From positions 161,049 through 225,048 of the forward strand of contig CAWJBH010000010.1 in the NCBI GenBank assembly GCA_963841125.1: a stretch of DNA of 64,000 nt. The letters are read 5' to 3'. Shown here one piece after another: positions 6,998 to 57,495 of the stretch. Position 1 is the first letter of the stretch, and every line of letters starts with the position of its first letter. A program made the translations under genes and the position numbers. The stretch comes from an uncultured Acidobacteriaceae bacterium. Lineage in GTDB: Bacteria > Acidobacteriota > Terriglobia > Terriglobales > Acidobacteriaceae. A model generated the notes under the pieces. That model did not search any database and was not told where the DNA came from. It worked only from the letters and a program-made list of their open reading frames with translations.

Positions 6998-7601
6998 TCA
7001 GGGTTTCACTAACTCGTCCGAGAGCAAGTGAGCTTTCAGGGCGAGACTGTGGGCGCGGTCGAGGTCTCCGGCGACGGCGGCTGTCTTCGACTGCTCCATG
7101 AACTGGTTGATTTGGTTTTTCATGTCCTGCTGGCTTGGCGTTGAGCTGGCGTCCCTCGATTTTCTTCAGGTTTTCTTCGGTCGCGATTCTGAGTTGTTCG
7201 GTAGAGCTTTTATGTTCGGCGGCCGTGCCGCCTGTGAGTTGGACCGGCGGTTCGTCGGATCCTCCGTTGCGGACAACTTTCTTGCGCGGCGGACAGGGCG
7301 GAGCGGAGGCGGAAGCTTCCCGGGTTAGGCGCAGGTGCGGCCGTCGTGCAATTTGACGTGCTTGCCTTCTTCCGATGGTGGGGTTTCGGAGCGGGCTTGG
7401 GTTGATTCGCGGGGTGATCCGCTGTCCGGCGCGGTGTGCGGGAGCGGGCGAAGATTGATCGGGTGGCGTCTGCGATGAGCCGCCAGACTGGCTTGCGGAG
7501 GTTGAAGAGCTGAAGGACATCGCAGCGGGCAGATTCCGGCAACAATTGTTTGGATGGCCCAGGATCAGAAGACAAACGGCGAGGATTGCAGGGAAAGTCA
7601 T
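6998..7601 (-). CDS. Hypothetical secreted protein, one frame switch near 7130
   Basis: N-terminal hydrophobic signal MTFPAILAVCLLILG. The C-terminal Arg-rich tail of the track ORF is replaced, after removing one C at about 7130, by KQQDMKNQINQFMEQSKTAAVAGDLDRAHSLALKAHLLSDELVKP*. That reads like a real coiled-coil protein end. Confidence 0.45.
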
Positions 7602-7679
7602 CTTTAATTGTCCGTGTTGTGCGGTGAACCTGTTTGATTTTACGCCCTCGGAAAGTCACTGCAGAAATCAGTTTGAGTT

Positions 7680-9566
7680 TTAACATTGCCGGTTCGTCGC
7701 GGGAATCTGCTGTGCGCTCCGCGATCAAGCTTGAGCCAGCGAGCGGAAGGCGGAAGCGGAATGTCGTGCCCTCCCCTTCGCTCGATTCAAATTCCACCGA
7801 GCCGTAGTGCCATTGCAGGATTTGGTAAGTCTGCGCCAGGCCAATGCCGTTGCCGTCCTTCCGGGTGGTGAAATAAAGTTCGAAAATCTTGTCCTGCACA
7901 TCCTGAGCAATGCCCACGCCTTGATCGCGGACTTCGGCGACCACCGCATCTTCCTCACGGCGCGCCGAGATCGTGAGTGGACCGCCGTCAGGCATGGCCA
8001 GGATTCCATTGAGCACCACGTTGAGCAGGGCTTGCTTCATGAAGTCGAGGTCTGCCTTGATGGGTAAGGGCTCTTTGGGCATGTCGCGCTTGATGGTGAC
8101 GCCGTGCTGCTCCGCATCAGGAGCGGCAAGCAGCGCCACGTCGTCGAGCACGCGGCGGAGATCCACTTCCTCCAGGCGAAGCTCGCGGGCTCGCATGAAG
8201 TCCACCAGAGTTTGCACCACGCGGTCGAGCCGGTGAATTTCGCTGCCGATGATGTCCATGTGACGCCGGGTATCAGGATCCAATTGCGCCAGCTTGTTCT
8301 GCAGGAGTTGCAAGTGGAGCACGATGGCATTGATGGGATTCTTCACCTCGTGGGCAACGCCGCCGGTCACGCGACCGCTGGCGGAGAGGCGGCGGGACAT
8401 CTCGATTTCGTCTCCGATGCGCCGGACGGACTCGGCATCGCGCATGATCAGCAGAGCGCCGATTTGAGTGCTTTTCTCCTGCACAAAATCCAGAGAAACC
8501 TGGACCCGCCTGCCGGCGGCGGCGACCAACTCGCGTTGCGAAAGCGGACGCCTGCGTTCAAAAGCTTCGAGCAGCGGCGCGCCGAGGGACGGTCAGCGGG
8601 AAAAAATTCTCGCGACCGGTTCTGCCCAGCAACTCAGCGCGCGGCCTGCCGAGGAAGCGCTCGACCGGGGCGCTCACCAGCACCACGCGGGAATCTCGCG
8701 TGAACAGCATCAGGCCATCCTGCAGCTTCGACATGAGCTGGTCCACGTTGTCTTTCAAGCGCGGAGAAAATTTCCCGGCTGTCGCGCATTTGCCGGCCCA
8801 GGTTGGCAATCTTCAGCGTGACCAGTCCGAGTTCGTCGTGTTCCGATTCGTCTCCCGGAAAGCGCCTCGGTGCGAACCAGAACTGACGTTATCCAAGATT
8901 GCGGCTGATCTCCTTGAGTGGTCCGAGAGCGAGATTGGACACGCCGGCAGCAAGCAGAAGCGAGGCGAAGATCGACGCAATCGAGAAATAGACCGCGTGC
9001 AGCAGGCGAGGCGTGATTTCGCTCTTGAGAAAGACCGTGGAAACACCAATGCGGATGGTGCCGAAAGGCGCTCCGTTCAATTGTAGCGGAGAAGGTGACG
9101 TCGTAAACTGTGGCGGGGCTGTACACCAGGCGAAGTTGCTCCCGGAAGCGGGCTGTCGTGACCGCGCGAAAGTCGGGACGCGGTGGCAACCTGCTTGCCT
9201 ACCAACTGAGGATTGGTATGCAGCAGCGCTTTCCCGTTCGCATCGACCACGGAGGCATCGTAGATGTAGGGCCAAAGCGCGACCGCGGATTCAAGATTGT
9301 TCAAAAGATTAGTATCCATCGGCAGGTATTCGGCAAGCGCCCGCCGCACCGCAACGGGATCATCGGTATCGATGCGAGTGCTGCTCAGATCGGGCAGATC
9401 GTTCTCGGCGAAGTAAGCCAGTTGCTGGGTCAGGCGGCTAGGCGCTTTCGTAGGCATTGGTGATGCGCTGACGAAGGAGCTGCGAGATATAGAGATAGGA
9501 GAACGCAGTCACCATCACGGTCACCATGAAGGTGATGCCGAGTCACGATGATGGCTTTACGTCGCA
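7680..9566 (-). CDS. Sensor histidine kinase (periplasmic sensor, HAMP, PAS, HisKA, HATPase), at least 5 frame switches; 3' end approximate
   Basis: Fragments in ORFs 9430, 9077, 8889, 8755, 8558 and 7210. MRRKAIIV start; TM region; PAS-like LQDGLMLFTRDSRVVLVSAPVERFLGR. H-box GGVAHEVKNPINAI, N-box LLNVVLNGILAM, G-boxes RDQGVGI and GNGIGLAQ. Confidence 0.8.
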
Positions 9567-9577
9567 TGGGAACAGGG

Positions 9578-9681
9578 CTGGTCAGTGAACAGTGGTCAGT
9601 GAGCGTAGTAAAGAGCAACGAACCGAGGACGTTCTTACTGATCACTCGCTGCCACTAGACCACTGACCACTGATTCACTGC
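9578..9681. repeat. Inverted GTGGTCA-heptamer arrays in the response-regulator / kinase spacer
   Basis: Left arm ggtcagtgaacagtggtcagtgagcg. Right arm cgctgccactagaccactgaccactgattcactgcc. The right arm overlaps the regulator stop codon, and the protein ends ...NQWSVV. Confidence 0.7.
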
Positions 9682-19863: not shown

Positions 19864-20350
19864 ATGATTCTACTCATAACCCCTTCGGCACGCGGCCAGG
19901 AATGCGCAGCCACTCTAAAAGAGGCCACCGGCGAAGAAACCCACTGGGCGGAGAATCTGCCGCAAGCCGTAGCCCGCCTGCGCGAACAAACCTACTCCGC
20001 CGTGGTTCTCGATCAGTTCCTTTTAGAGAACGAGCCCGCCGAAAGCGACCAGGTGCTCGAGCATCTGGGCACAGCCTTCCCCGTTTACCTGAACTTTGCC
20101 GTCAGCGGCATGGAGCGCCTGCTGCGCGAGGTCCGCTCCGCGCTCCATCGCCGCAAGCGTGAAGAAACCCAGGCCCGCCGCTCCGTCGAGCAACAGATTC
20201 GCAGCGAAATGTGCGAATCACTCACGGTCATGCTGCTCTCCTGCGAACTGGCCATGTCCGTGCCCGGCGTTCCCGCTCCTGCCGCCGAAAAAATCCGCGC
20301 TGATCGACAATCTCGCCCGCGACATGCGCCTGAGACTGGGCGCGAACTGA
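19864..20350 (+). CDS. Receiver-like domain protein with a His-less DHp-like helix, one frame switch near 20300
   Basis: MILLITPS...AVVLDQFLL looks like a degenerate receiver with no acidic pair after beta1. It is followed by RRKREETQARRSVEQQIRSEMCESLTVMLLSCELA. The tail, reconstructed from ORF 20096, is AAEKIRALIDNLARDMRLRLGAN*. Confidence 0.4.
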
Positions 20351-20545
20351 TTCGTCGTTTGAAGACGGGACGTTATCGGTCATATCCGCCACCGCCTTGC
20401 GGACAGTATATGCAAGACTGTGCAGATGCCTCAGTCTCTCCAAGAAAAGTTTTCGCGTTCCTGCCCCATTCGCACTAGAATAGGCCAGCGCCGCACGCTG
20501 GACGCCGCATCCGCTGCGGCATCCCACACACTTCCGGAGGCTCTC

Positions 20546-21668
20546 GTGCACGTTCTGGTCACAGCCGATACCATGTCCGGCTCCTGGACCTACACTCGGG
20601 AACTGGTCACCGGGCTGGTCACTCGCGGTGTCCGGGTCACGCTGGTCAGCTTCGGCGAGATTCCCCTACCCGAGCAAACCGCATGGATGGATCTTCTTCA
20701 CGGCCTCGAGTATCGCCCTACCGCCTTCCGCCTGGAGTGGATGGACGACGCGCCGCAAGATCTTGACCGAGTCCTCGGATTCCTGGCCAGCCTGGTCCGC
20801 GAGGTTCACCCGGACCTGCTTCACCTCCACCAGTTCTGCCACGGCAATCTCCCCGTCGATGTTCCGCGCGTAGTGATGGTCCACGGCGACCTCATCAGTT
20901 GGGCCGAAGCCGTGCAGGGTTGCAGCCGCGTCCCACGCGCTGGCTGAAGTGGTATCGCGAAACCATCGTCCGCGGCATTGCTGCCGCCGATGCCGTAGTC
21001 GCGCCCTCGGCCTGCATGCTCGACACGCTTATCTCCACCTATACCCGCCCCCGACGCGCAGCCATAATCTATCCCGGCCGCAATCCCATCTTCTTTAATC
21101 CCTACGTCAGCAAAGACGATTCCGTGCTCTCAGTCGGCCGCCTGCTCGATGCCGGCAAGCAGGTCTTCCTTCTCACGCAACACACCCATCCGTTCTCCGT
21201 GTGCATCGTGGGCGCGGAGCAAACCGTTCCGATGCCGCAGCATTCCGATCCGCGCGGATGTGAAGGTCTACAACCGATGCAGAGCTGCGTCGCCATCCGC
21301 GGTGCCCAGACCGAAGCTCAATTGCGCAGCTCTCTACAGTCGCGCCGCTATCTATGCGGCCACTTCTCGTTATGAGCCGCTCGGCATGGCTGCGCTTGAT
21401 GCTGCTTTCTCCCGTTGCGCCATCGTCGCTAACGATATTCCCAGCTTCCGCGAAGTTCTGGGGCGACGCCGCCCTTTACTTCCGCACGAACGATGCCCGC
21501 AGTCTGGCTGAGACCCTTAGCCGGCTCGATGCTGACCGCGCCCTGCGCCACGCCTATGCCGATCGCGCCTACACCCGAGCCCGCGAACGCTTCACCACAA
21601 AACGCATGATCGACGACTACCTCGATCTCTACCGCGCCCTGGTTTCCGCCAATTCTTTAGCCGCCTGA
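20546..21668 (+). CDS. Glycosyltransferase family 4 (GT-B fold), at least 3 frame switches
   Basis: GGAGG at 20536 then GTG at 20546. VHVLVTADTMSGSWTYTRELVTGL...HPDLLHLHQF. C-terminal AAIYAATSRYEPLGMAALDAAFSRCAIVANDIPSFREV (the E-x7-E region) and FTTKRMIDDYLDLY. Confidence 0.75.
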
Positions 21669-25089: not shown

Positions 25090-26328
25090 TCAGTGGATCG
25101 TCTTCGTCTTGCGCGACATGTAATCCATCAGCAGGTATTGGCCTAGCGTATACGGGGTGGTGAAGTAGGCTTTGCCGCGGCACATCTCGGTTACTTTCTG
25201 GACGAATTGCACCAATCCATAATCTGACGCGAGCATGAAGGTGTTGATGAGGACGCCGGCGCGCTTGCACTTCGAGACTTCTTCCAGCGTCTGGCTCACT
25301 ACTAGCGGGTCGAGGCCGAAGGCGTTTTTGTAGATGCGTCCGTCTTCGAGAGTCAGGGCGGAGGGTTTGCCGTCGGTGATCATGACGATCTGCTTCATGT
25401 CTTTTCTTTGGCGCTGCAGGATTCTTTGCGCCAGGCGCAGGCCTTCGCGCGTGTTGGTGTAATAAGGGCCGACCTTGACGCGGGCTAGCTGCGAGAGCGG
25501 GACTTCTTCGGCGGAGTCGTGAAAGAGCACGAGCGAGAGCGAGTCGCCGGGATACTGCGTGCGGATCAGATGCGAGAGCGCCATGGCAACTTTTTTCGCG
25601 GGAGTGAAGCGGTCTTCGCCGTAGAGGATCATCGAGTGCGAGCAGTCGAGCATCAGCACCGTCGCGCAGGAAGATTGATACTCGCACTGGTGAACTTGCA
25701 GGTCGCGGTATTCGATGTTGAGCGGCAGCGCGAGGCCTTCGCGCTGGATCGCGCTCGAGAGCGTGGCGGTGATGTCGAGGTTGAGCGTGTCGCCGAACTC
25801 GTAGGTGCGGGAAGCGCCGCTGGCTTCGATGCCGGTGGCGAGGTCGCGGGTGTCGTGGCGTCCAAAGCTGGATTTGCCGAGCGAGCCGAGCAGATTGCGC
25901 AGCGATTTGAAGCCGAGGAAGTCGAGGCTCTTGTCGGTGATTTCGAATTTCGCTTGCTGCTGGTTTTCGCCGACCTGGCCGCCCACGCTGGATGGTCGCG
26001 ACGGGTCAGGCGGTTGGTCGATTGAGATGTAATCTTCCTGCTGCATGCGCTCGATCAGCTTTTCGATGAGTTCGTCGAGTTCACCGTCCGCCGCCATTTG
26101 CTGCAGGCGCTCGCGCATGTCTTCGTCGAACTGATCGCCTTCCATCAGAGCTTGTTCGATGGCGCGGCGAAGGTCGTCGAGAGTCTGCTCGCCCTCAGGC
26201 ATTTCGTACCACATGTCGCTCTGGAAGCCGCTCTGCAGCAGGTAGTCGGAGAGCGCGCCGAGCAGGTCTTCCAGGCTCATTTCGCCGGCGGGGTCGGGAA
26301 CGTATTTGGAGTAGCGGATGCGTTTCAT
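25090..26328 (-). CDS. VWA-domain protein (partner of the upstream AAA+ ATPase)
   Basis: Intact 412 aa. MIDAS-like [20 protein letters not shown] and FHDSAEEV fit a VWA fold. Acidic N-terminal region. Confidence 0.75.
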
Positions 26329-26331
26329 AAG

Positions 26332-26431
26332 CAGTGGTTAGTGGTCAGTGGTCAGTGAAATCAGTGGCCAGCAAGGCCTCACTGGCCGATTAGCTACTAC
26401 TACTAATCACTGACCACTAGCCACTGACCAC
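26332..26431. repeat. Inverted GTGGTCA-heptamer arrays filling the AAA+ / VWA spacer
   Basis: Left arm cagtggttagtggtcagtggtcagtga. Right arm tcactgaccactagccactgaccact, a near-perfect complement. Loop of about 47 nt. The element occupies essentially the whole 104-bp gap. Confidence 0.8.
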
Positions 26432-26432
26432 T

Positions 26433-27941
26433 CTAGTTAAACTGTCTTCTCTGCCGGTACGGTGGTTCTTCTTTCTCGAAACTCTTTTCGCGCTGCGGTT
26501 CGGGCTTTTTTTCTCCGGCTTTGAACACTCGTTCTTCATTGCGGCCGATGCGTTTGTGCGCGTGCAGGCCTTCGAGAATAAATTCCGCGGCGGAGACCTG
26601 CTGCTCGGGACTTTCTTTTGCGAGACACTTCAGCGGGCCGAGTTTGTCGATCAGGCCCTGAATCTCTTTCAGGTTTTCGAGAGCTTCCAGCGGCGGAGAC
26701 CGAATCCGACAACTGAATCTCACCGCCCAGGTCGAACCACTGCACGATCTGCTGCACGTTGGCGCCGGTGAAATATTCGTCGTAGGTCTTCGCGATGGCG
26801 GCGCGGATCAGTTCGCGGCCCACGTAGTCTGCGCCTTTCATCTCGCCTTCGTATTCGAGTTCGAGTTTGCCGGTGATCGCGGGCAGCGCGGCATAGACGT
26901 CGCTGACGCGGGGCACGACCAGTTTTTCGTCATTGCGCAGAGCGCGGCGCTCGGCGTTCGAGATGACGTTCTCCATGGCAGTGATCGGCAGGCGCTGGCT
27001 CACGCCGCTGCGCTTGTCGATTTTCTTGTCTTCGCGGGCGGCGAAGGCGATGCGCTCGATCACTTCCTGAATGTAGGTGGGCAGGTGCATCGCTTGCGCT
27101 TCGCCTTGACTGCGCGCTGGTCCAGGCTTCCTGCGCGGTGATGGCGATGCCTTCATCGACCGTTGCGGGATAGTGCGTGCGAATCTCGGAGCCGATGCGG
27201 TCTTTGAGCGGGGTGATGATTTTTCCGCGGGCGGTGTAGTCTTCGGGATTCGCGCTGAAAACGATGGCAACGTCAAGCGGGAGGCGAATGGGATAGCCCT
27301 TAATCTGCACGTCGCCTTCCTGCATGATGTTGAACAGGCCGACCTGAATTTTTCCGGCGAGGTCGGGAAGTTCGTTGATGGCGAAGATGCCGCGATTGGC
27401 GCGGGGCAGCAGGCCGTAGTGAACGGTGAACTCGCTCGAAAGTTCGTGACCGCCGCGGGCGGCTTTGATGGGGTCGATGTCGCCGATGAGGTCGGCGATG
27501 GTGACGTCGGGCGTGGCAAGTTTTTCCACGTAGCGATCGTCGGGCGTGAGATAGGCACTGGGAGTGTCGTCGCCGAGGCGCGCGACTTCTTCGCGGCAAC
27601 GGCGGCAGATAGGGGCGTAGGGATTGTCGCGAATCTCGCAGCCCGGCGAGGTAGGGCATGTGAGGATCGAGCAGCGTCGTCAGGGCGCGCAGGATGCGGC
27701 TTTTGGCCTGGCCGCGCAGGCCGAGCAGAATGAAATTGTGCCGCGAAAGAATAGCGTTCACGATCTGCGGCACGACCGTGTCTTCATAGCCGACGATGCC
27801 GGGAAAAATGCCGGAGTCGTCGTGGTCACGCAGGCGGGCGATGAGGTTGTCGCGGAGTTCATCCTTCACGCGGCGGGTGCGCAGGCGTTCTTCGGAAAAA
27901 GCACTGCGGCGCAATTCGCCTAGCGTGCGCGGAAGACACAT
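26433..27941 (-). CDS. AAA+ ATPase of the Mg-chelatase ChlI/BchI-like (sigma-54-interaction type) family, at least 4 frame switches
   Basis: [13 protein letters not shown]...[38 protein letters not shown] (Walker A-like). [11 protein letters not shown] (Walker B-like). [26 protein letters not shown]. Fragments in ORFs 27300, 26930, 26536 and 26433. Confidence 0.75.
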
Positions 27942-28088
27942 GAGGAACCCCCAGAGGAACTTCTCTGGATTATACGCGGAAGAGCGGGCTTCGGCTCGTT
28001 CGGGCTTCGGCCGCAACAATCGCTCAAGCGACAATCTGTCGCGCTGAGGGCTTTCGGTTTGCCGAAGCCCGAAGCCCGAAAGCCGCCC

Positions 28089-49591: not shown

Positions 49592-49807
49592 ATGCGCTCT
49601 GATCGTGTGTTTGACGCTTTACAGACATTGCGGAATCGTTATATGCTTTGTCAGCTCGCCTCCAAGGCCACGCGGAAGTTCCATCGGCCCAGCACCAGAA
49701 TCCAGGAAACAATGAACGGTGTTTTGGACCGGATCGCAGGCAAGGAGCGGCAGGAAGTTCTGTCGGAGCCAGAGAATTTTGCTGAGGCACAACGGCGGGC
49801 TGCTTAA
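49592..49807 (+). CDS. Small hypothetical protein upstream of rho (weak RpoZ-like NRYxLxxxAxKA motif)
   Basis: AAGGAAGGAG upstream. MRSDRVFDALQTLRNRYMLCQLASKATRKFHRPSTRIQETMNGVLDRIA. The resemblance to the omega-subunit motif NRFxLxxxAxxRA is weak. Confidence 0.4.
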   Translation: MRSDRVFDALQTLRNRYMLCQLASKATRKFHRPSTRIQETMNGVLDRIAGKERQEVLSEPENFAEAQRRAA

Positions 49808-49836
49808 CGGCAGCCCTGTCCGCCCGCCTCGCAGTT

Positions 49837-49891
49837 TTTTGGATCTGATATTTTGGATCTTTAGTTTTTTGGATCTAGTATTTTTGGATTT
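49837..49891. repeat. Four phased TTTTGGAT(C/T)T boxes between the small ORF and rho
   Basis: Copies start at 49837, 49851, 49867 and 49882 (spacing 14, 16, 15 nt). Three of them contain GATC. They are preceded by the hairpin GGGCTGC / GCAGCCC and a T6 run. Confidence 0.7.
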
Positions 49892-49975
49892 GTTGTCTTC
49901 CCTGAATACCCTCCTTTGAAAATCTCCCGCAGTAACGCTAACGGATACGTTTAAGTGACCGGGTTTAGGTGAATC

Positions 49976-51229
49976 ATGACCATTGCTGAACTGAAAGAAA
50001 AGAACATTACCGAGCTCACCAAGATCGCAAGGACCTTGGAGCTGCCCGGCGCCAGCGGACTGCGCAAGCAGGATCTCATCTTCAAAATCCTGCAGGCCCA
50101 GAGCGAAAAAGAAGGCCACATCTTCGCCGAAGGCGTCCTCGAAATCCTGCCCGATGGCTACGGTTTCCTCCGCTCCCCCGATTACAACTACCTCCCCGGC
50201 CCCGACGATATCTACGTCTCGCCCTCGCAAATCCGCAAGTTCGACCTGAAAACCGGCGACACCATCAGCGGACAGGTCCGCCCTCCGCACGAAGGCGAAA
50301 AATACTTCGCGCTGGTGAAGATCGAAGCCGTCAACTTCGAATCGCCCGACGAAGCCCGCAACAAGATCCTGTTCGACAACCTCACGCCCCTCTATCCCGC
50401 AGGAGCGCCTCAAGCTCGAAACCACGCGCGAGAACTGCCAGCGCCCGAGTAATGGATTTGCTCACTCCGCTGGGCAAAGGCCAGCGCGGCCTCATCGTCT
50501 CTCCGCCCCGCGCCGGCAAAACCATGCTGCTGCAAAACGTCGCCAACTCGATCACCACCAACCATCCCGAAGTCGTGTTGATGGTTCTCCTGATCGACGA
50601 GCGCCCCGAAGAAGTCACCGACATGCAGCGCTCGGTGAAAGGCGAAGTGATTTCCTCCACCTTCGACGAGCCCGCCGCCCGCCACGTCCAGGTCGCCGAA
50701 ATGGTGATCGAAAAAGCAAAGAGATTAGTCGAGCACAAGCGCGACGTAGTAATCCTGCTCGATTCCATCACGCGCCTGGCCCGCGCCTACAACACCATCG
50801 TTCCGCCCTAGCGGCAAAGTCCTCTCCGGCGGCGTCGATTCCAACGCCCTCCAGCGCCCCAAACGTTTCTTCGGCTCCGCCCGCAACATCGAAGAAGGCG
50901 GCTCGCTCACCATCATCGCCACCGCACTGATCGACACCGGCTCCCGCATGGACGACGTGATCTTCGAAGAATTCAAAGGCACCGGCAACTCCGAAATCAT
51001 CCTCGAGCGCAAGTTGGTCGATAAGCGCGTATTCCCCGCCATCGACATTCAGCGCTCGCGGCACGCGTAAAGAAGAGCTGCTGATCCCCCGCGAAGACCT
51101 GCCGAGATCTGGGTCCTGCGCAAAGTCCTGAACCCGCTCTCCCCAGTAGAAGCCATGGAATTGCTGATCGACAAACTAAGCAAAACCAAATCCAACGGCG
51201 AGTTCCTCTCCAACATGAGCGCCCTGTAA
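49976..51229 (+). CDS. rho: Transcription termination factor Rho, at least 4 frame switches
   Basis: [85 protein letters not shown] (Walker A), [27 protein letters not shown]. After shifts, [35 protein letters not shown] and RVFPAIDI. Confidence 0.93.
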
Positions 51230-51252
51230 ACCGAAGCGAATTAGAAGCGGGC

Positions 51253-51300
51253 GCCCCGTCCTCGTCTCTCCGGTTTTTGGAGAGACAGGGCGGGGCTTTT
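51253..51300 (+). terminator. Long imperfect hairpin + T-run after rho
   Basis: GCCCCGTCCTCGTCTCTCC ggttttt GGAGAGACAGGGCGGGGC followed by TTTT. Confidence 0.7.
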
Positions 51301-51325
51301 GACTTCCCCAAGTGTTGAATTTGCT

Positions 51326-51500
51326 CGTGTGGAGCGGACACTCCTGTCCGCTGCTTTTGACGTTGCCTTTGCCCTTGCTTTTGAAGTTGCCCGTGTGGAG
51401 CGGACACTCCTGTCCGTTGCTTTTGACTTTGACTTTGCTTTTGAATTTGAGTCGAATCAAAGCGGCACAACCGTGGAAGAGCGGCGCTTCAGCGCCGCGT
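51326..51500. repeat. Block of hairpin repeats: two AGCGGACA-CTCC-TGTCCGCT units plus one GCGGCGC-TTCA-GCGCCGC unit
   Basis: cgtgtggagcggacactcctgtccgctgcttttgac at 51326 and a near copy at 51391. ccgtggaagagcggcgcttcagcgccgcgtaa ends at 51500. The same modules occur at 51995-52032 and 55993-57390. Confidence 0.8.
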
Positions 51501-55029: not shown

Positions 55030-55292
55030 CAGTGGTCAGTGGTCAGTGGTCAGTGGACAGAAAAAACAGGCAGCAGTATCAAGCACCAGAGATCCTAAAT
55101 GTGGGAACAGGATGTGGGGAATGGGAACAGGATGTGGGGACAGCCGCCCTCAGCCGTCCGGCCGAGCAAAGCTCGCCGTTTTGTGACTTACCCTCCCAAC
55201 CCCGAAATCCACCACGGAGATCTGCTCCGCCCCCCAGCGCTTTTCACTGACCACTGACCACTGACCACTGACCACTAATCACTGACCACTGC
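55030..55292. repeat. Composite element: (GTGGTCA)n array, 185-bp interior, inverted (TGACCAC)n array
   Basis: Left cagtggtcagtggtcagtggtcagtggacag (55030-55060). Right cactgaccactgaccactgaccactgaccactaatcactgaccact (55245-55292). The interior holds a 19-bp direct repeat tgggaacaggatgtgggga x2 (55102-55140) and a GGACAGCCGCC hairpin (55138-55177). Confidence 0.8.
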
Positions 55293-55750
55293 CTACCCCA
55301 GCCACTCCCAAGCCTCCCGATACCCCTCCCACCGCGGATTCCGGCTCTTCAAATCCGGAAAAAATCTCAAACTCTTCACCCCTACAAAAGCCGCGATCGG
55401 CAGCAGATACCAGACTTCTTTCTCTTCCGCAATCACATGCGCCGCCAGCACATCAATATCGCTCGCCGTATAAGTTTTCTTCCCCTCGCCCCGCGTAGAA
55501 TAAACCGGCTGCACATCATATCCCCCGCGATACAACCGCCCCGTACCCTTAACCTGCACCCGCAAAACCGCCCGCCCGGCCGCGCCCACACGATAAAGTC
55601 ACACTTCTCGCTGTCTCCCCAAGGCACCGCCAACCCAAACCCCAACGCCTGCGCCCGCACCAAAAACGCCCCCTGCGACAACTCCCCCATCCGCTTAGGA
55701 TTCCCCCAAGCCCGCTCCCACCACCGCCCATCCGGATCCTCCACCGCCAT
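55293..55750 (-). CDS. Small stand-alone PD-(D/E)XK nuclease (group-I-intron-endonuclease-like family), one frame switch near 55575; start uncertain
   Basis: NPKRMGELSQGAFLVRAQALGFGLAVPWGDSEKCDFIVW joins VLRVQVKGTGRLYRGGYDVQ...YTASDIDVLAAHVIAEEKEVWYLLPIAAF...LRFFP. D...(Q/E)VK nuclease core. Confidence 0.6.
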
Positions 55751-55992: not shown

Positions 55993-57495
55993 CCCGTGTG
56001 GAGCGGACACTCCTGTCCGCTGCTTTTGACGTTGATTTTGACTCTGCCTTTTGACTTTGATCCAGACTGCAGGGGAGCGAAGATTCGTATCAGCGTATGC
56101 CTTCAGGCATACCGAAAGCCAACACCACCGTGGAAGAGCGGCGCTTCAGCGCCGCGCAAAGCCACCCTAAATTAACCCTTGTCATTCCGAACAGGGCCAA
56201 AGGCCCGGTGAGGAACCTGCTGTTGACTTTCGCCGCCACCCCGCACCCGTGTAGAACGGACACTCCTGTCGTTGCCTTTGACGTTGATTTTGCCTTCGAC
56301 TGCGACCGCACCCTCCTAGACGGGGTGCCCCATTTCTCGCGTCCTTTGCGAGAAGTGGGAACCACGGATGCCCGCAGCGCCGTTCTTGAAGTTGATGCTG
56401 CCTTTGACCTGGAAAACTCGTATCAGGATATGCCTTCACGCATACCGAACCCCAACACCCCCGCGGAAGAGCAGCGCTTCAGCGCCGCATAAAGACACCC
56501 TAAATTAACCTTTGTCATTCCGAACAGGGCCGCAAGGCCCGGTGAGGAACCTGCTGTTGACCTTCGCCACCACCGCGCCGCCCGCGTGGAACGGACACTC
56601 CGTCAGTTGCTTTTGACGTTGATTCAGGATTCGTATCAGCGTATGCCTTCAGGCATACCGAAAGCCAACACCACCGTGGAGAGCGGCGCTTCAGCGCCGC
56701 GCAAAGCCACCCTAAATTAACCCTTGTCATTCCGAAAAGGGCCAAAGGCCCAGTGAGGAACCTGCTGTGATGTTCGCCGCCACCCGCACCCGTGTAGAAC
56801 GGACACTCCTGTCGTTACCTTTGACGTTGATTTTGCCTTCGACTGCGACCGCACCCTCCTAGACGGGGTGCCCCATTTCTCGCGTCCTTTGCGAAAAGTG
56901 GGAACCACGGATGCCCGCAGCGCCGTTCTTGAAGTTGATGCTGCCTTTGACCTGGAAAACTCGTATCAGGATATGCCTTCACGCATACCGAACCCCAACA
57001 CCCCCGCGGAAGAGCAGCGCTTCAGCGCCGCGTAAGGCCCACCAAACCCCAGCCGCAAAGCGGCGAAAGAATGCAGCCCACGGCGCAAGCCGTGGGTAAA
57101 GCAGAAAAAGAGAAACGAGCCCCGCAGGGGCGGCAGAGAAATCGCCCGTGTGGAACGGACACTCCTGTCCATTACCCTTGACGTTGACTTTGAATTCGAC
57201 CGCACCCTGATCAGAAGAGGGTGCCCCATCTTTCGCGTCTTTTGCGAAAGGTGGGAACCACGGAAGCCCGCAGCGCCGTTCTTGATGTTGATGTCGCTTT
57301 TGACCTTGAACAATTCGTATCAGGGTATGCCTTCAGGCATATCGAAACCCGGCACCACCGTGGAAGAGCGGCGCTTCAGCGCCGCGTAAGGCCCACCAAA
57401 CCCTAGCCGCAAAGCGGCGAAAGAATGCAGCCCACGGCGCAAGCCGTGGGTAAAGAGAAAAGGGAACAACCAAGTCCCGTAGGGACGGAAGAGAC
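55993..57495. repeat. 1.5-kb ORF-free mosaic of nested and tandem hairpin repeats
   Basis: Near-identical direct copies at 56082-56488 and 56628-57031 (offset 546 to 543 nt, about ten differences by eye). A diverged third module lies at 57145-57390. gcccaccaaaccc.agccgcaaagcggcgaaagaatgcagcccacggcgcaagccgtgggtaaag is duplicated at 57036 and 57389. All listed ORFs here translate repeats. Confidence 0.85.

Follow-up and report, generated by a model that had tools for sequence, protein, structure and literature searches.

Between the genes for an AAA+ ATPase and a von Willebrand factor A (VWA) domain protein, a 64,000-nucleotide (nt) stretch of contig CAWJBH010000010.1 from an uncultured Acidobacteriaceae bacterium, in the following referred to as the window, carries a palindrome built of heptanucleotide repeats. 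With a probability of roughly 0.5, we regard this element as a slippage-prone and occasionally mobile DNA repeat of the class formed by the short tandemly repeated repetitive (STRR) sequences and the heptamer long simple sequence repeats (LSSRs), which is tolerated at this junction and is not an operon-specific device. In most bacterial genomes, heptanucleotide repeats reportedly outnumber every other class of long simple repeats; they are said to have been known since 1990, and we know of no accepted origin or function for them.

The junction is instructive in several respects. Its roughly 77 alleles form a natural series of changing 7-nt units within a persistent hairpin architecture, and the wider set of arrays follows rules that any mechanism must explain: a 5'-YAG/3'-CTR polarity, a shared TCAG core, and a position flush and in register with stop codons. 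It also provides a functional setting, a gene without Shine-Dalgarno motif whose start codon lies at the foot of a stem, opposite the upstream stop codon. Even if the arrays are neutral, they would still be a marker of how non-coding DNA is shaped beside self-regenerating repeats; in practice, moreover, they break assemblies and lead to wrongly called gene ends in Acidobacteria, Planctomycetes and Chloroflexi.

Structure and position of the element

The element is an inverted repeat (26333–26432) of two 26-nt arms (26333–26358 and 26407–26432), which are complementary at 23 of 26 positions (88%) and enclose a 48-nt centre with a small hairpin of its own (26366–26387). Each arm is a period-7 tandem array, one of CAGTGGT in 3.7 copies and the other of its complement CACTGAC in 3.6 copies (Tandem Repeats Finder; 26332–26357 and 26408–26432, respectively). 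A preliminary description of this DNA had reported near-perfect complementary arms with a loop of about 47 nt that fill the whole spacer, with 2 nt left to the ATPase stop codon and 4 nt to the VWA start codon. The inverted repeat and its whole-spacer extent were confirmed, as was the 4-nt distance (GCTT) to the start codon at 26326–26328; the gap on the other side, by contrast, is 0 nt, as the arm ends at 26432 and the stop codon occupies 26433–26435. The element thus begins directly at the base 3' of the stop codon. The features of the junction are as follows:

26433–27941, minus strand: gene for the AAA+ ATPase, BchI/ChlI-like, with three +1 frameshifts near 27644, 27115 and 26691
26433–26435, minus strand: ATPase stop codon TAG; the C-terminus of the protein (...RQRRQFN) is conserved in relatives
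26407–26432, minus strand: 5' arm, in transcript sense AGTGGTC AGTGGCT AGTGGTC AGTGA, adjoining the ATPase stop codon
26359–26406, minus strand: 48-nt centre, with the small hairpin and a TAG-rich run, unlike the centres of other copies
26333–26358, minus strand: 3' arm, in transcript sense TCACT GACCACT GACCACT AACCACT, 4 nt before the VWA start codon
26326–26328, minus strand: VWA start codon ATG, with no Shine-Dalgarno-like motif upstream
25090–26328, minus strand: gene for the VWA-domain protein, 412 residues (VWA_2; it resembles the VWA part of BchD/cobaltochelatase)

When up to three mismatches are allowed, the 18-mer AGTGGTCAGTGGTCAGTG, which corresponds to 2.5 units, has 15 matches in the window, where 0.02 are expected. 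As transcript-sense RNA, the element folds with −55.8 kcal/mol (z = −6.6), a stability equalled by 0 of 200 shuffles, and in the predicted fold the first base after UAG is paired with the fifth base before AUG. While the frameshifted genes in the assembly might suggest an artefact, these values, together with the like elements at the orthologous junction in dozens of independent short-read metagenome contigs, rule out an assembly error or a chance inverted repeat as far as we are concerned; the probability that we leave to either is negligible.

Comparisons with known RNA and DNA elements gave little. No Rfam covariance model matched the element at gathering score, and the only match at E ≤ 1, a 17-bit microRNA hairpin, was judged meaningless. 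Terminator and promoter consensus scans made no call at the element; with a loop region of 48 nt, the tail GCUUAUG and no U-tract, the window copy does not have the form of an intrinsic terminator. An array of the CRISPR type was ruled out by the period and the absence of spacers.

The orthologous junction in relatives

The spacer between the ATPase stop and the VWA start codon was compared at 77 loci, comprising three long contigs, 73 metagenome contigs and the window, with VWA protein identities of 83–98% and a nearest DNA identity of 92.6%. The gene pair is syntenic in every relative examined. In a close relative, L001, the spacer is empty and consists of 7 nt (TAG AGCTATT ATG), and three further short spacers (20, 35 and 46 nt) are likewise free of a palindrome. 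Nearly all of the remaining ones (44–173 nt) are heptamer-array palindromes, built from at least 10 different units, which in a common register read TCAGTGG, TTGGTCG, TCAGCCG/CTG/CTA, TCAGGTC, TCAGTTC, TCAGCAG, CTAGTGG, CTAGCTT, TGAGCAA, CGAGCCC and TCGGGCT. The closest element-bearing relatives (L002 and L003) have GTCGTTG arms and not CAGTGGT arms, and the unit types are patchy across the VWA tree. They are connected by single-base steps that are also seen as variants within arrays, for instance from TCAGTGG over TTAGTGG and TTAGTCG to TTGGTCG.

With one and the same detector, an element was found at 55 of 77 ATPase–VWA junctions, compared to 12 of 43 spacers between the upstream Lon-domain gene and the ATPase gene and 7 of 73 positions after the VWA stop codon, which sets the ATPase–VWA junction apart as special. 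Its high occupancy is consistent with either selection or 'trapping' of elements at the site.

Some relatives have spacers of 380–780 nt with a small extra open reading frame (ORF), which mostly lies between heptamer arms. At the ATPase–VWA junction, this is the case in L147, L139 and L153; L191 has only the 3' arm, and in L137 and L123 the ORF has no clear arms. In the Lon–ATPase spacer of L183 and L170, the extra ORF is on the opposite strand. The centre of such palindromes seems to be a place of DNA insertion. In addition, L161 and L156 share an identical 121-nt Lon–ATPase spacer, while their VWA genes are only 93% identical and their ATPase–VWA junctions carry different heptamer units, a pattern that suggests recombination between lineages in this region.

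Copies in other genomes

An exact scan for AGTGGTCAGTGGTCAGTG with one genome per species returned at least 119 stretches. The hosts among the listed matches are many Acidobacteriota as well as Planctomycetota, Chloroflexota, Verrucomicrobiota, Bacteroidota, a few others and Cyanobacteria; the latter include Nostoc NIES-4103 (L106) and a Calothrix metagenome-assembled genome (MAG; L111), which have palindromes of the CAGTGGT unit, read there as AGTGGTC arrays, with ATTGGTC-type units alongside. We counted as a palindrome any GT-rich array that is followed within 350 nt by a complementary array, and found 47 pairs of this order in the listed loci and the window, against two of the opposite order and about 110 arrays without a partner arm. 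The centres of the 47 pairs measure 4–184 nt and are nearly all unrelated, while the termini are phase-fixed as 5'-CAGTGG...CCACTG-3' in most copies. In three cases (L059, L047 and L022), another heptamer palindrome is nested within the centre.

Two comparisons bear directly on the dynamics of these elements. Arms and centre (56 nt) are common to the loci L004 and L100 of two Pyrinomonadaceae MAGs, with 87.5% identity, and the flanks of these loci are unrelated even by tblastx; the whole element, arms and centre, can therefore be copied to an unrelated locus. In L143 and L152, whose VWA genes are 98.75% identical, the arrays differ by whole 7-nt units, so that array length differs in steps of 7 nt from one close relative to another. 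No consistent direct repeat that could represent a target-site duplication was found around copies, with the flanks at the empty site being diverged. Likewise, a search for a transposase between arm pairs more than 1 kb apart found none; they enclose ordinary genes, namely an ABC ATPase gene and flagellar genes, and an autonomous element was rejected on this basis.

Two further kinds of CAGTGGT arrays were seen in this set. Locus L043 (6940–7800), from an uncultured delta proteobacterium MAG, has at least seven tandem copies of a 105–118-nt unit, each with a promoter-like GATAAT box, three to five CAGTGGN heptamers and a terminator-like hairpin, and resembles a cluster of small-RNA genes. Elsewhere (L025, 2967–7064; L011, 572–872; L105, 4586–5011; and others), such arrays lie within long ORFs or can be read as putative seven-residue peptide repeats (QWSVVSG-like).

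Rules common to the unit families

Searched without bias for period-7 palindromes, the whole of the collected DNA yielded 70 pairs in 37 unit families. The trinucleotide YAG, but not CTR, is present in the 5' arm of 22 of the 37 families, the reverse in none (p = 5e-7), and the same polarity holds when CAGTGGT-like units are left aside (11 vs 0; p = 0.001). In this count, CAG appears 19 times and CTG once. G+T richness was rejected as the basis of the polarity because units such as CAGCCAT are not G+T-rich; the polarity is defined by YAG. When the units are aligned by rotation, they share a T-C-A-G core with 4.5 bits, compared to 3.42 ± 0.17 for shuffled units (z = 6.4; z = 2.6 without CAGTGGT-like units), and three of the seven positions vary freely between families within one genome.

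The arrays also keep a register with stop codons. The conserved C-terminus of the ATPase places its stop codon at the native position. Where this codon is TAG, the unit core begins 1 nt before it, with (T/C)TAG standing for TCAG, in 11 of 16 alleles and in all three at the neighbouring spacer; where it is TGA, the core begins on the stop codon itself (TGAG) in six of eight. Similarly, at 93 CAGTGGT array ends from many genomes, the stop codon mostly coincides with either CAG or TGG in the register of the unit (p = 2.5e-11), also when only ORFs of at least 150 residues with a stop codon before the first array base are considered (p = 2e-4).

Placement relative to genes

With crude ORF calls, the 47 palindromes, which come from many genomes, were scored as lying between co-directional genes (25), convergent genes (11) or divergent genes (3), inside probably spurious ORFs (3) or at locus edges (5). 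The respective shares of intergenic bases are 57% co-directional, 20% convergent and 22% divergent. Operon spacers are hence not preferred, and the only deviation is a depletion between divergent genes. The preliminary description had proposed such a comparison of spacer classes, having taken the placement in intra-operon spacers as non-random; the placement proved strongly non-random, but with respect to stop codons and not to operons. The stop codon of the arriving ORF is within 13 nt of the outer end in 40 of 47 cases (85%), compared to 21% of random intergenic positions scored identically, a figure that falls to 7.5% with a stricter, greedy gene set. Both ends are within 13 nt of a gene boundary in 24 of the 47, although spacers of up to 25 nt hold only 0.8% of intergenic bases; given this adjacency at both ends, the filling of whole spacers is a general trait of the CAGTGGT palindrome family. 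Of the gene boundaries close to unpaired arrays, 30 are at the 5' end of the GT-rich strand and 10 at the other end.

RNA pairing and translational context

Two tests looked for selection at the RNA level, both with modest power. In the stems of the orthologous junctions, sense-strand mismatches comprise 37 G.U and 49 A.C alongside 1056 Watson-Crick pairs, a comparison that gives no hint of pairing being preserved in the sense transcript. Nor are variant units mirrored between the arms, which mismatch at a rate of 0.136, compared to 0.142 when units are permuted (p = 0.10). The arms are built as two arrays from a single unit family, not as reverse-complement copies that are kept in step, and it is for this reason that they are complementary. 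Selection and targeted insertion, both of which the preliminary description had seen suggested by the placement, are not demonstrated. The two pairing tests were negative, and the frequent occupation of the junction would fit selection as well as trapping.

A Shine-Dalgarno-like motif precedes the ATPase start codon at 42 of 43 loci, but the VWA start codon at only 6 of 74. In most alleles, the 5' arm begins 0–5 nt after the stop codon, and the 3' arm ends 2–12 nt (mostly 4–8 nt) before the ATG, so that the unpaired distance between stop and start is about equal to the 7 nt of the empty allele. The linker between 3' arm and ATG is pyrimidine-rich and contains TTT, within 8 nt after the arm, in 37 of 74 cases. 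Translational coupling by termination-reinitiation is known to need very short distances (PMC10666635). Judging from this layout, the hairpin would keep VWA translation dependent on that of the ATPase.

Proposed explanation and its alternatives

The following scenario would account for a tolerated repeat at this place. A translating ribosome melts structure ahead of itself. Arrays would regrow by replication slippage, while the adjacent unique non-coding DNA would not, so that deletions would eat into the flanking spacer until the array meets constrained bases, be it a stop codon or the last bases before a start codon or promoter. Such a deletion-regrowth ratchet may have produced the flush position at the stop codon. 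At the ATPase–VWA junction, the element would occupy a former translational-coupling spacer of about 7 nt, and in the bicistronic mRNA, its stem-loop of about 26 bp would bring UAG and AUG together at the base of the stem, with 4 unpaired nt between them. A terminating ribosome would melt the outer stem and free the AUG; given that the VWA gene has no Shine-Dalgarno motif, it would thereby still be translatable by ribosomes that finish the ATPase gene. With translation preserved, the insertion would be tolerated and hard to lose, and any regulatory effect would be secondary: the hairpin would persist as a nearly neutral feature of a coupled gene pair, to be lost only by a very precise deletion.

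Several points weigh against this reading. Both the ratchet and the unmasking of the start codon by the ribosome are inferences. The broken ATPase frame, if real, makes coupling moot at the window locus. Slippage by itself leaves unexplained that distant phyla have the identical unit, that the TCAG core is conserved and that the polarity is strict. Furthermore, the comparison was one between species, the nearest relative being 92.6% identical in VWA DNA, and the centres of the three CAGTGGT palindromes in the window, searched against 1.42 Mb of collected loci, matched nothing except an unrelated 44-nt repeat, so that mobility is not demonstrated for the copy at this junction. Finally, high occupancy and a sequence that changes under constant architecture are also what selection for structure would produce.

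This last point leads to the main rival, in which the stem-loop is a selected intercistronic RNA, such as an attenuator, a stabiliser of the ATPase 3' end or a processing site, that sets the ratio of ATPase to VWA protein, under which the sequence could vary provided that a long hairpin remained. The retention of the architecture with at least 10 units across the 77 loci, an occupancy far above that of neighbouring junctions, the strong folding (−55.8 kcal/mol) and the terminator-like TTT within 8 nt of the 3' arm in half of the relatives all speak for it. We nevertheless consider it unlikely: the balance of G.U and A.C mismatches has no sense-strand bias, unit variants are neither mirrored nor compensated between the arms, and the complementarity is explained by their common unit. 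In addition, the window copy has no U-tract and no terminator call, the same elements also separate convergent genes and adjoin the ends of many unrelated genes, and at least one relative (L001) lives without the element. A second rival rests on mobility. A non-autonomous element comparable to a miniature inverted-repeat transposable element (MITE) or to a REPIN, a hairpin formed by two repetitive extragenic palindromic (REP) sequences, might be inserted beside stop-codon-like tetranucleotides by a transposase that is encoded elsewhere and recognises 5'-CAGTGG...CCACTG-3'. The phase-fixed termini with their strict polarity, the whole element at unrelated loci (L004/L100), the empty site in L001, the nested insertions (L059, L047 and L022) and the register of the array with the stop codon would agree with this. 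A MITE would, however, be expected to have a conserved internal sequence, whereas the centres are unrelated in the window and in almost all other copies, L004/L100 being the one exception; target-site duplications are not visible, about 110 arrays stand without a partner arm, distant arm pairs enclose ordinary genes and no transposase, and the arms are direct repeats, unlike the small palindromes of REPs. We therefore give this possibility rather little credence.

Alternatively, the arrays could be multivalent DNA or RNA binding sites for a protein that recognises TCAG-type heptamers, to which the palindromic layout would be secondary. This would suit the conservation of the TCAG core across unit families, the presence of one unit in distant phyla and the tandem small-RNA-like units of L043, whose heptamer-array body lies between a promoter-like box and a hairpin, and S1, Csp or CsrA-type binders have been proposed by MacGregor for TAACTGA arrays (PMC4679880). 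Yet no candidate protein was found, and within one genome the families differ freely at three of seven positions; we hold this reading to be very doubtful. A bolder proposal, which is a long shot in our view, takes all TCAGNNN arrays as one pan-bacterial system, fixed in polarity and locked in register with stop codons, that is either made or maintained by a dedicated activity or read by a conserved nucleic-acid-binding protein. The activity may add repeats on a template, nick the TCAG core or work in some similar way, and at coupling junctions, paired arrays may be kept since their stem hands terminating ribosomes over the hairpin foot to the following start codon. If this were true, coupling-junction hairpins would be a bacterial counterpart of ribosome shunting. 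Taken together, a tolerated, slippage-prone repeat remains the explanation that we favour.

Other elements and genes in the window

The preliminary description had counted the element as the second case of its kind in the window. This is an undercount: there are three palindromes of the CAGTGGT unit and two of other heptamers, i.e. five intergenic elements of three unit families in 64 kb. Besides the one at the ATPase–VWA junction, these are:

2853–2947: degenerate GTCGTTG/CAACGAC palindrome, ending 7 nt before an ATG
9579–9673: CAGTGGT palindrome with a 56-nt centre; the stop codon of a sigma-54 response regulator (9655–9657) lies inside an arm
27986–28088, minus strand: GGGCTTC/GAAGCCC palindrome in the next spacer upstream, beginning on the base after the TAA of a Lon-substrate-binding-domain gene
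55030–55291: CAGTGGT palindrome, centre 184 nt, with one end 1 nt away from the stop codon (55293–55295) of a minus-strand ORF

The centres of the three CAGTGGT copies (56, 48 and 184 nt) are mutually unrelated, and in all three, the stop codon of the arriving gene is inside an arm or at most 1 nt away. About 120 nt beyond the palindrome at 9579–9673, the ORF of a fragmented histidine kinase starts. The centre of the palindrome at 55030–55291 contains a perfect 20-nt tandem duplication (TGGGAACAGGATGTGGGGAA twice, in 55102–55140) and a stretch of about 44 nt (55132–55175) that recurs in L028, L001 and L036 and thus represents another small dispersed repeat. Not far from it, two matches to the Acido-Lenti-1 RNA on the minus strand (57051–57096 and 57405–57450; 48.7 bits each, gathering score 37) lie within a 1.9-copy tandem repeat of 354 nt (56789–57461), to which a 66-nt tandem repeat at 51315–51438 is related.

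The GGGCTTC palindrome ends before the conserved promoter-like box GCGTATAAT of the ATPase operon. In 43 related loci, a conserved promoter-like box, GCGTATAATC, is found about 30 nt 5' of the ATPase start codon (approximately 27955–27985 in the window) and has a G-rich, Shine-Dalgarno-like GGGGGTT on its 3' side; the upstream heptamer palindrome never reaches this box.

The intact orthologue of the ATPase in L001 (498 residues) resembles BchI/ChlI-type AAA+ ATPases, and compared to it, the window frame has three single-base insertions (+1). Other genes also appear to be split into overlapping ORFs on the same strand, namely the histidine kinase (7210–9457) and the ORF runs at 19864–21668 and 49619–51470. 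This fragmentation probably reflects assembly errors of the long-read indel type rather than pseudogenes.

Comparison with known heptanucleotide repeats

The class to which these elements belong is already known, with heptamer arrays in cyanobacteria, inverted pairs in Xanthomonas and start-proximal TAACTGA arrays. In contrast, a literature search on heptanucleotide repeats in Acidobacteria found no description of such elements. We likewise came across no account of the polarity rule, of the common core, of the register with stop codons or of unit turnover at a conserved junction.

The closest analogues appear to be the STRR heptanucleotides of heterocystous cyanobacteria, reportedly described by Mazel and colleagues in 1990, and the heptanucleotide LSSRs, which Mrazek and colleagues are said to have surveyed in 2007. 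Like these, the elements described here consist of head-to-tail 7-nt units in intergenic regions, come in several families per genome and vary in length in 7-nt steps. The unit of the window itself forms palindromes in the cyanobacteria Nostoc NIES-4103 and Calothrix, and STRR2 (TTGGTCA) is one mismatch away from this unit. Unlike the STRRs, our arrays are short (three to four units), are arranged as inverted pairs and reside in an acidobacterium (Ca. Sulfotelmatobacter-like); we did not find their stop-codon anchoring, their 5'-YAG polarity or the turnover of units at one orthologous site in the published description.

REP and REPIN elements with their REP-associated tyrosine transposases (RAYTs) are likewise dispersed extragenic hairpin repeats of several families, found at gene 3' ends and within operons, where the hairpin is part of the mRNA. 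REP arms, however, are imperfect palindromes of 20–40 nt with a conserved 5' tetranucleotide, and their centres are conserved within a family, whereas the arms described here are direct arrays of CAGTGGT without self-complementarity, around unrelated centres.

In Xanthomonas, 70–75 GGGAATC heptamer arrays occur as convergent inverted pairs, and heptamer arrays are also present in Nostoc (Rehm et al., 2015; PMC4692102). In both systems, two intergenic arrays lie close together on opposite strands and could form a stem-loop or cruciform, and both keep their type (single or inverted) from species to species but not their length. Stop-codon anchoring is not reported for the Xanthomonas pairs. Their G-rich unit was studied for its ability to form G-quadruplexes (PMC4692102), whereas CAGTGGT lacks a run of three G and hence a G-tract.

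A final parallel concerns TAACTGA, repeats of which are found in marine Beggiatoaceae, Cyanobacteria and Bacteroidetes a few nt 5' of start codons, with 7-nt indels between strains (MacGregor, 2015; PMC4679880). Both systems feature a CTGA-containing sense array that ends a few nt before a start codon without canonical ribosome-binding site; here, the CCACTGA-type 3' arm ends 4 nt before the ATG, and a Shine-Dalgarno-like motif is present at 6 of 74 loci. They also share the spread across phyla without a known vehicle, the 7-nt indel steps and arrays of reverse orientation just after stop codons. The units differ at two of seven positions (CCACTGA or ACCACTG here), and nearly all TAACTGA repeats are direct (169 sets, with one inverted; PMC4679880), whereas ours are paired. 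Within the polarity pattern described above, TAACTGA would nonetheless fit as a unit of the 3'-arm type.

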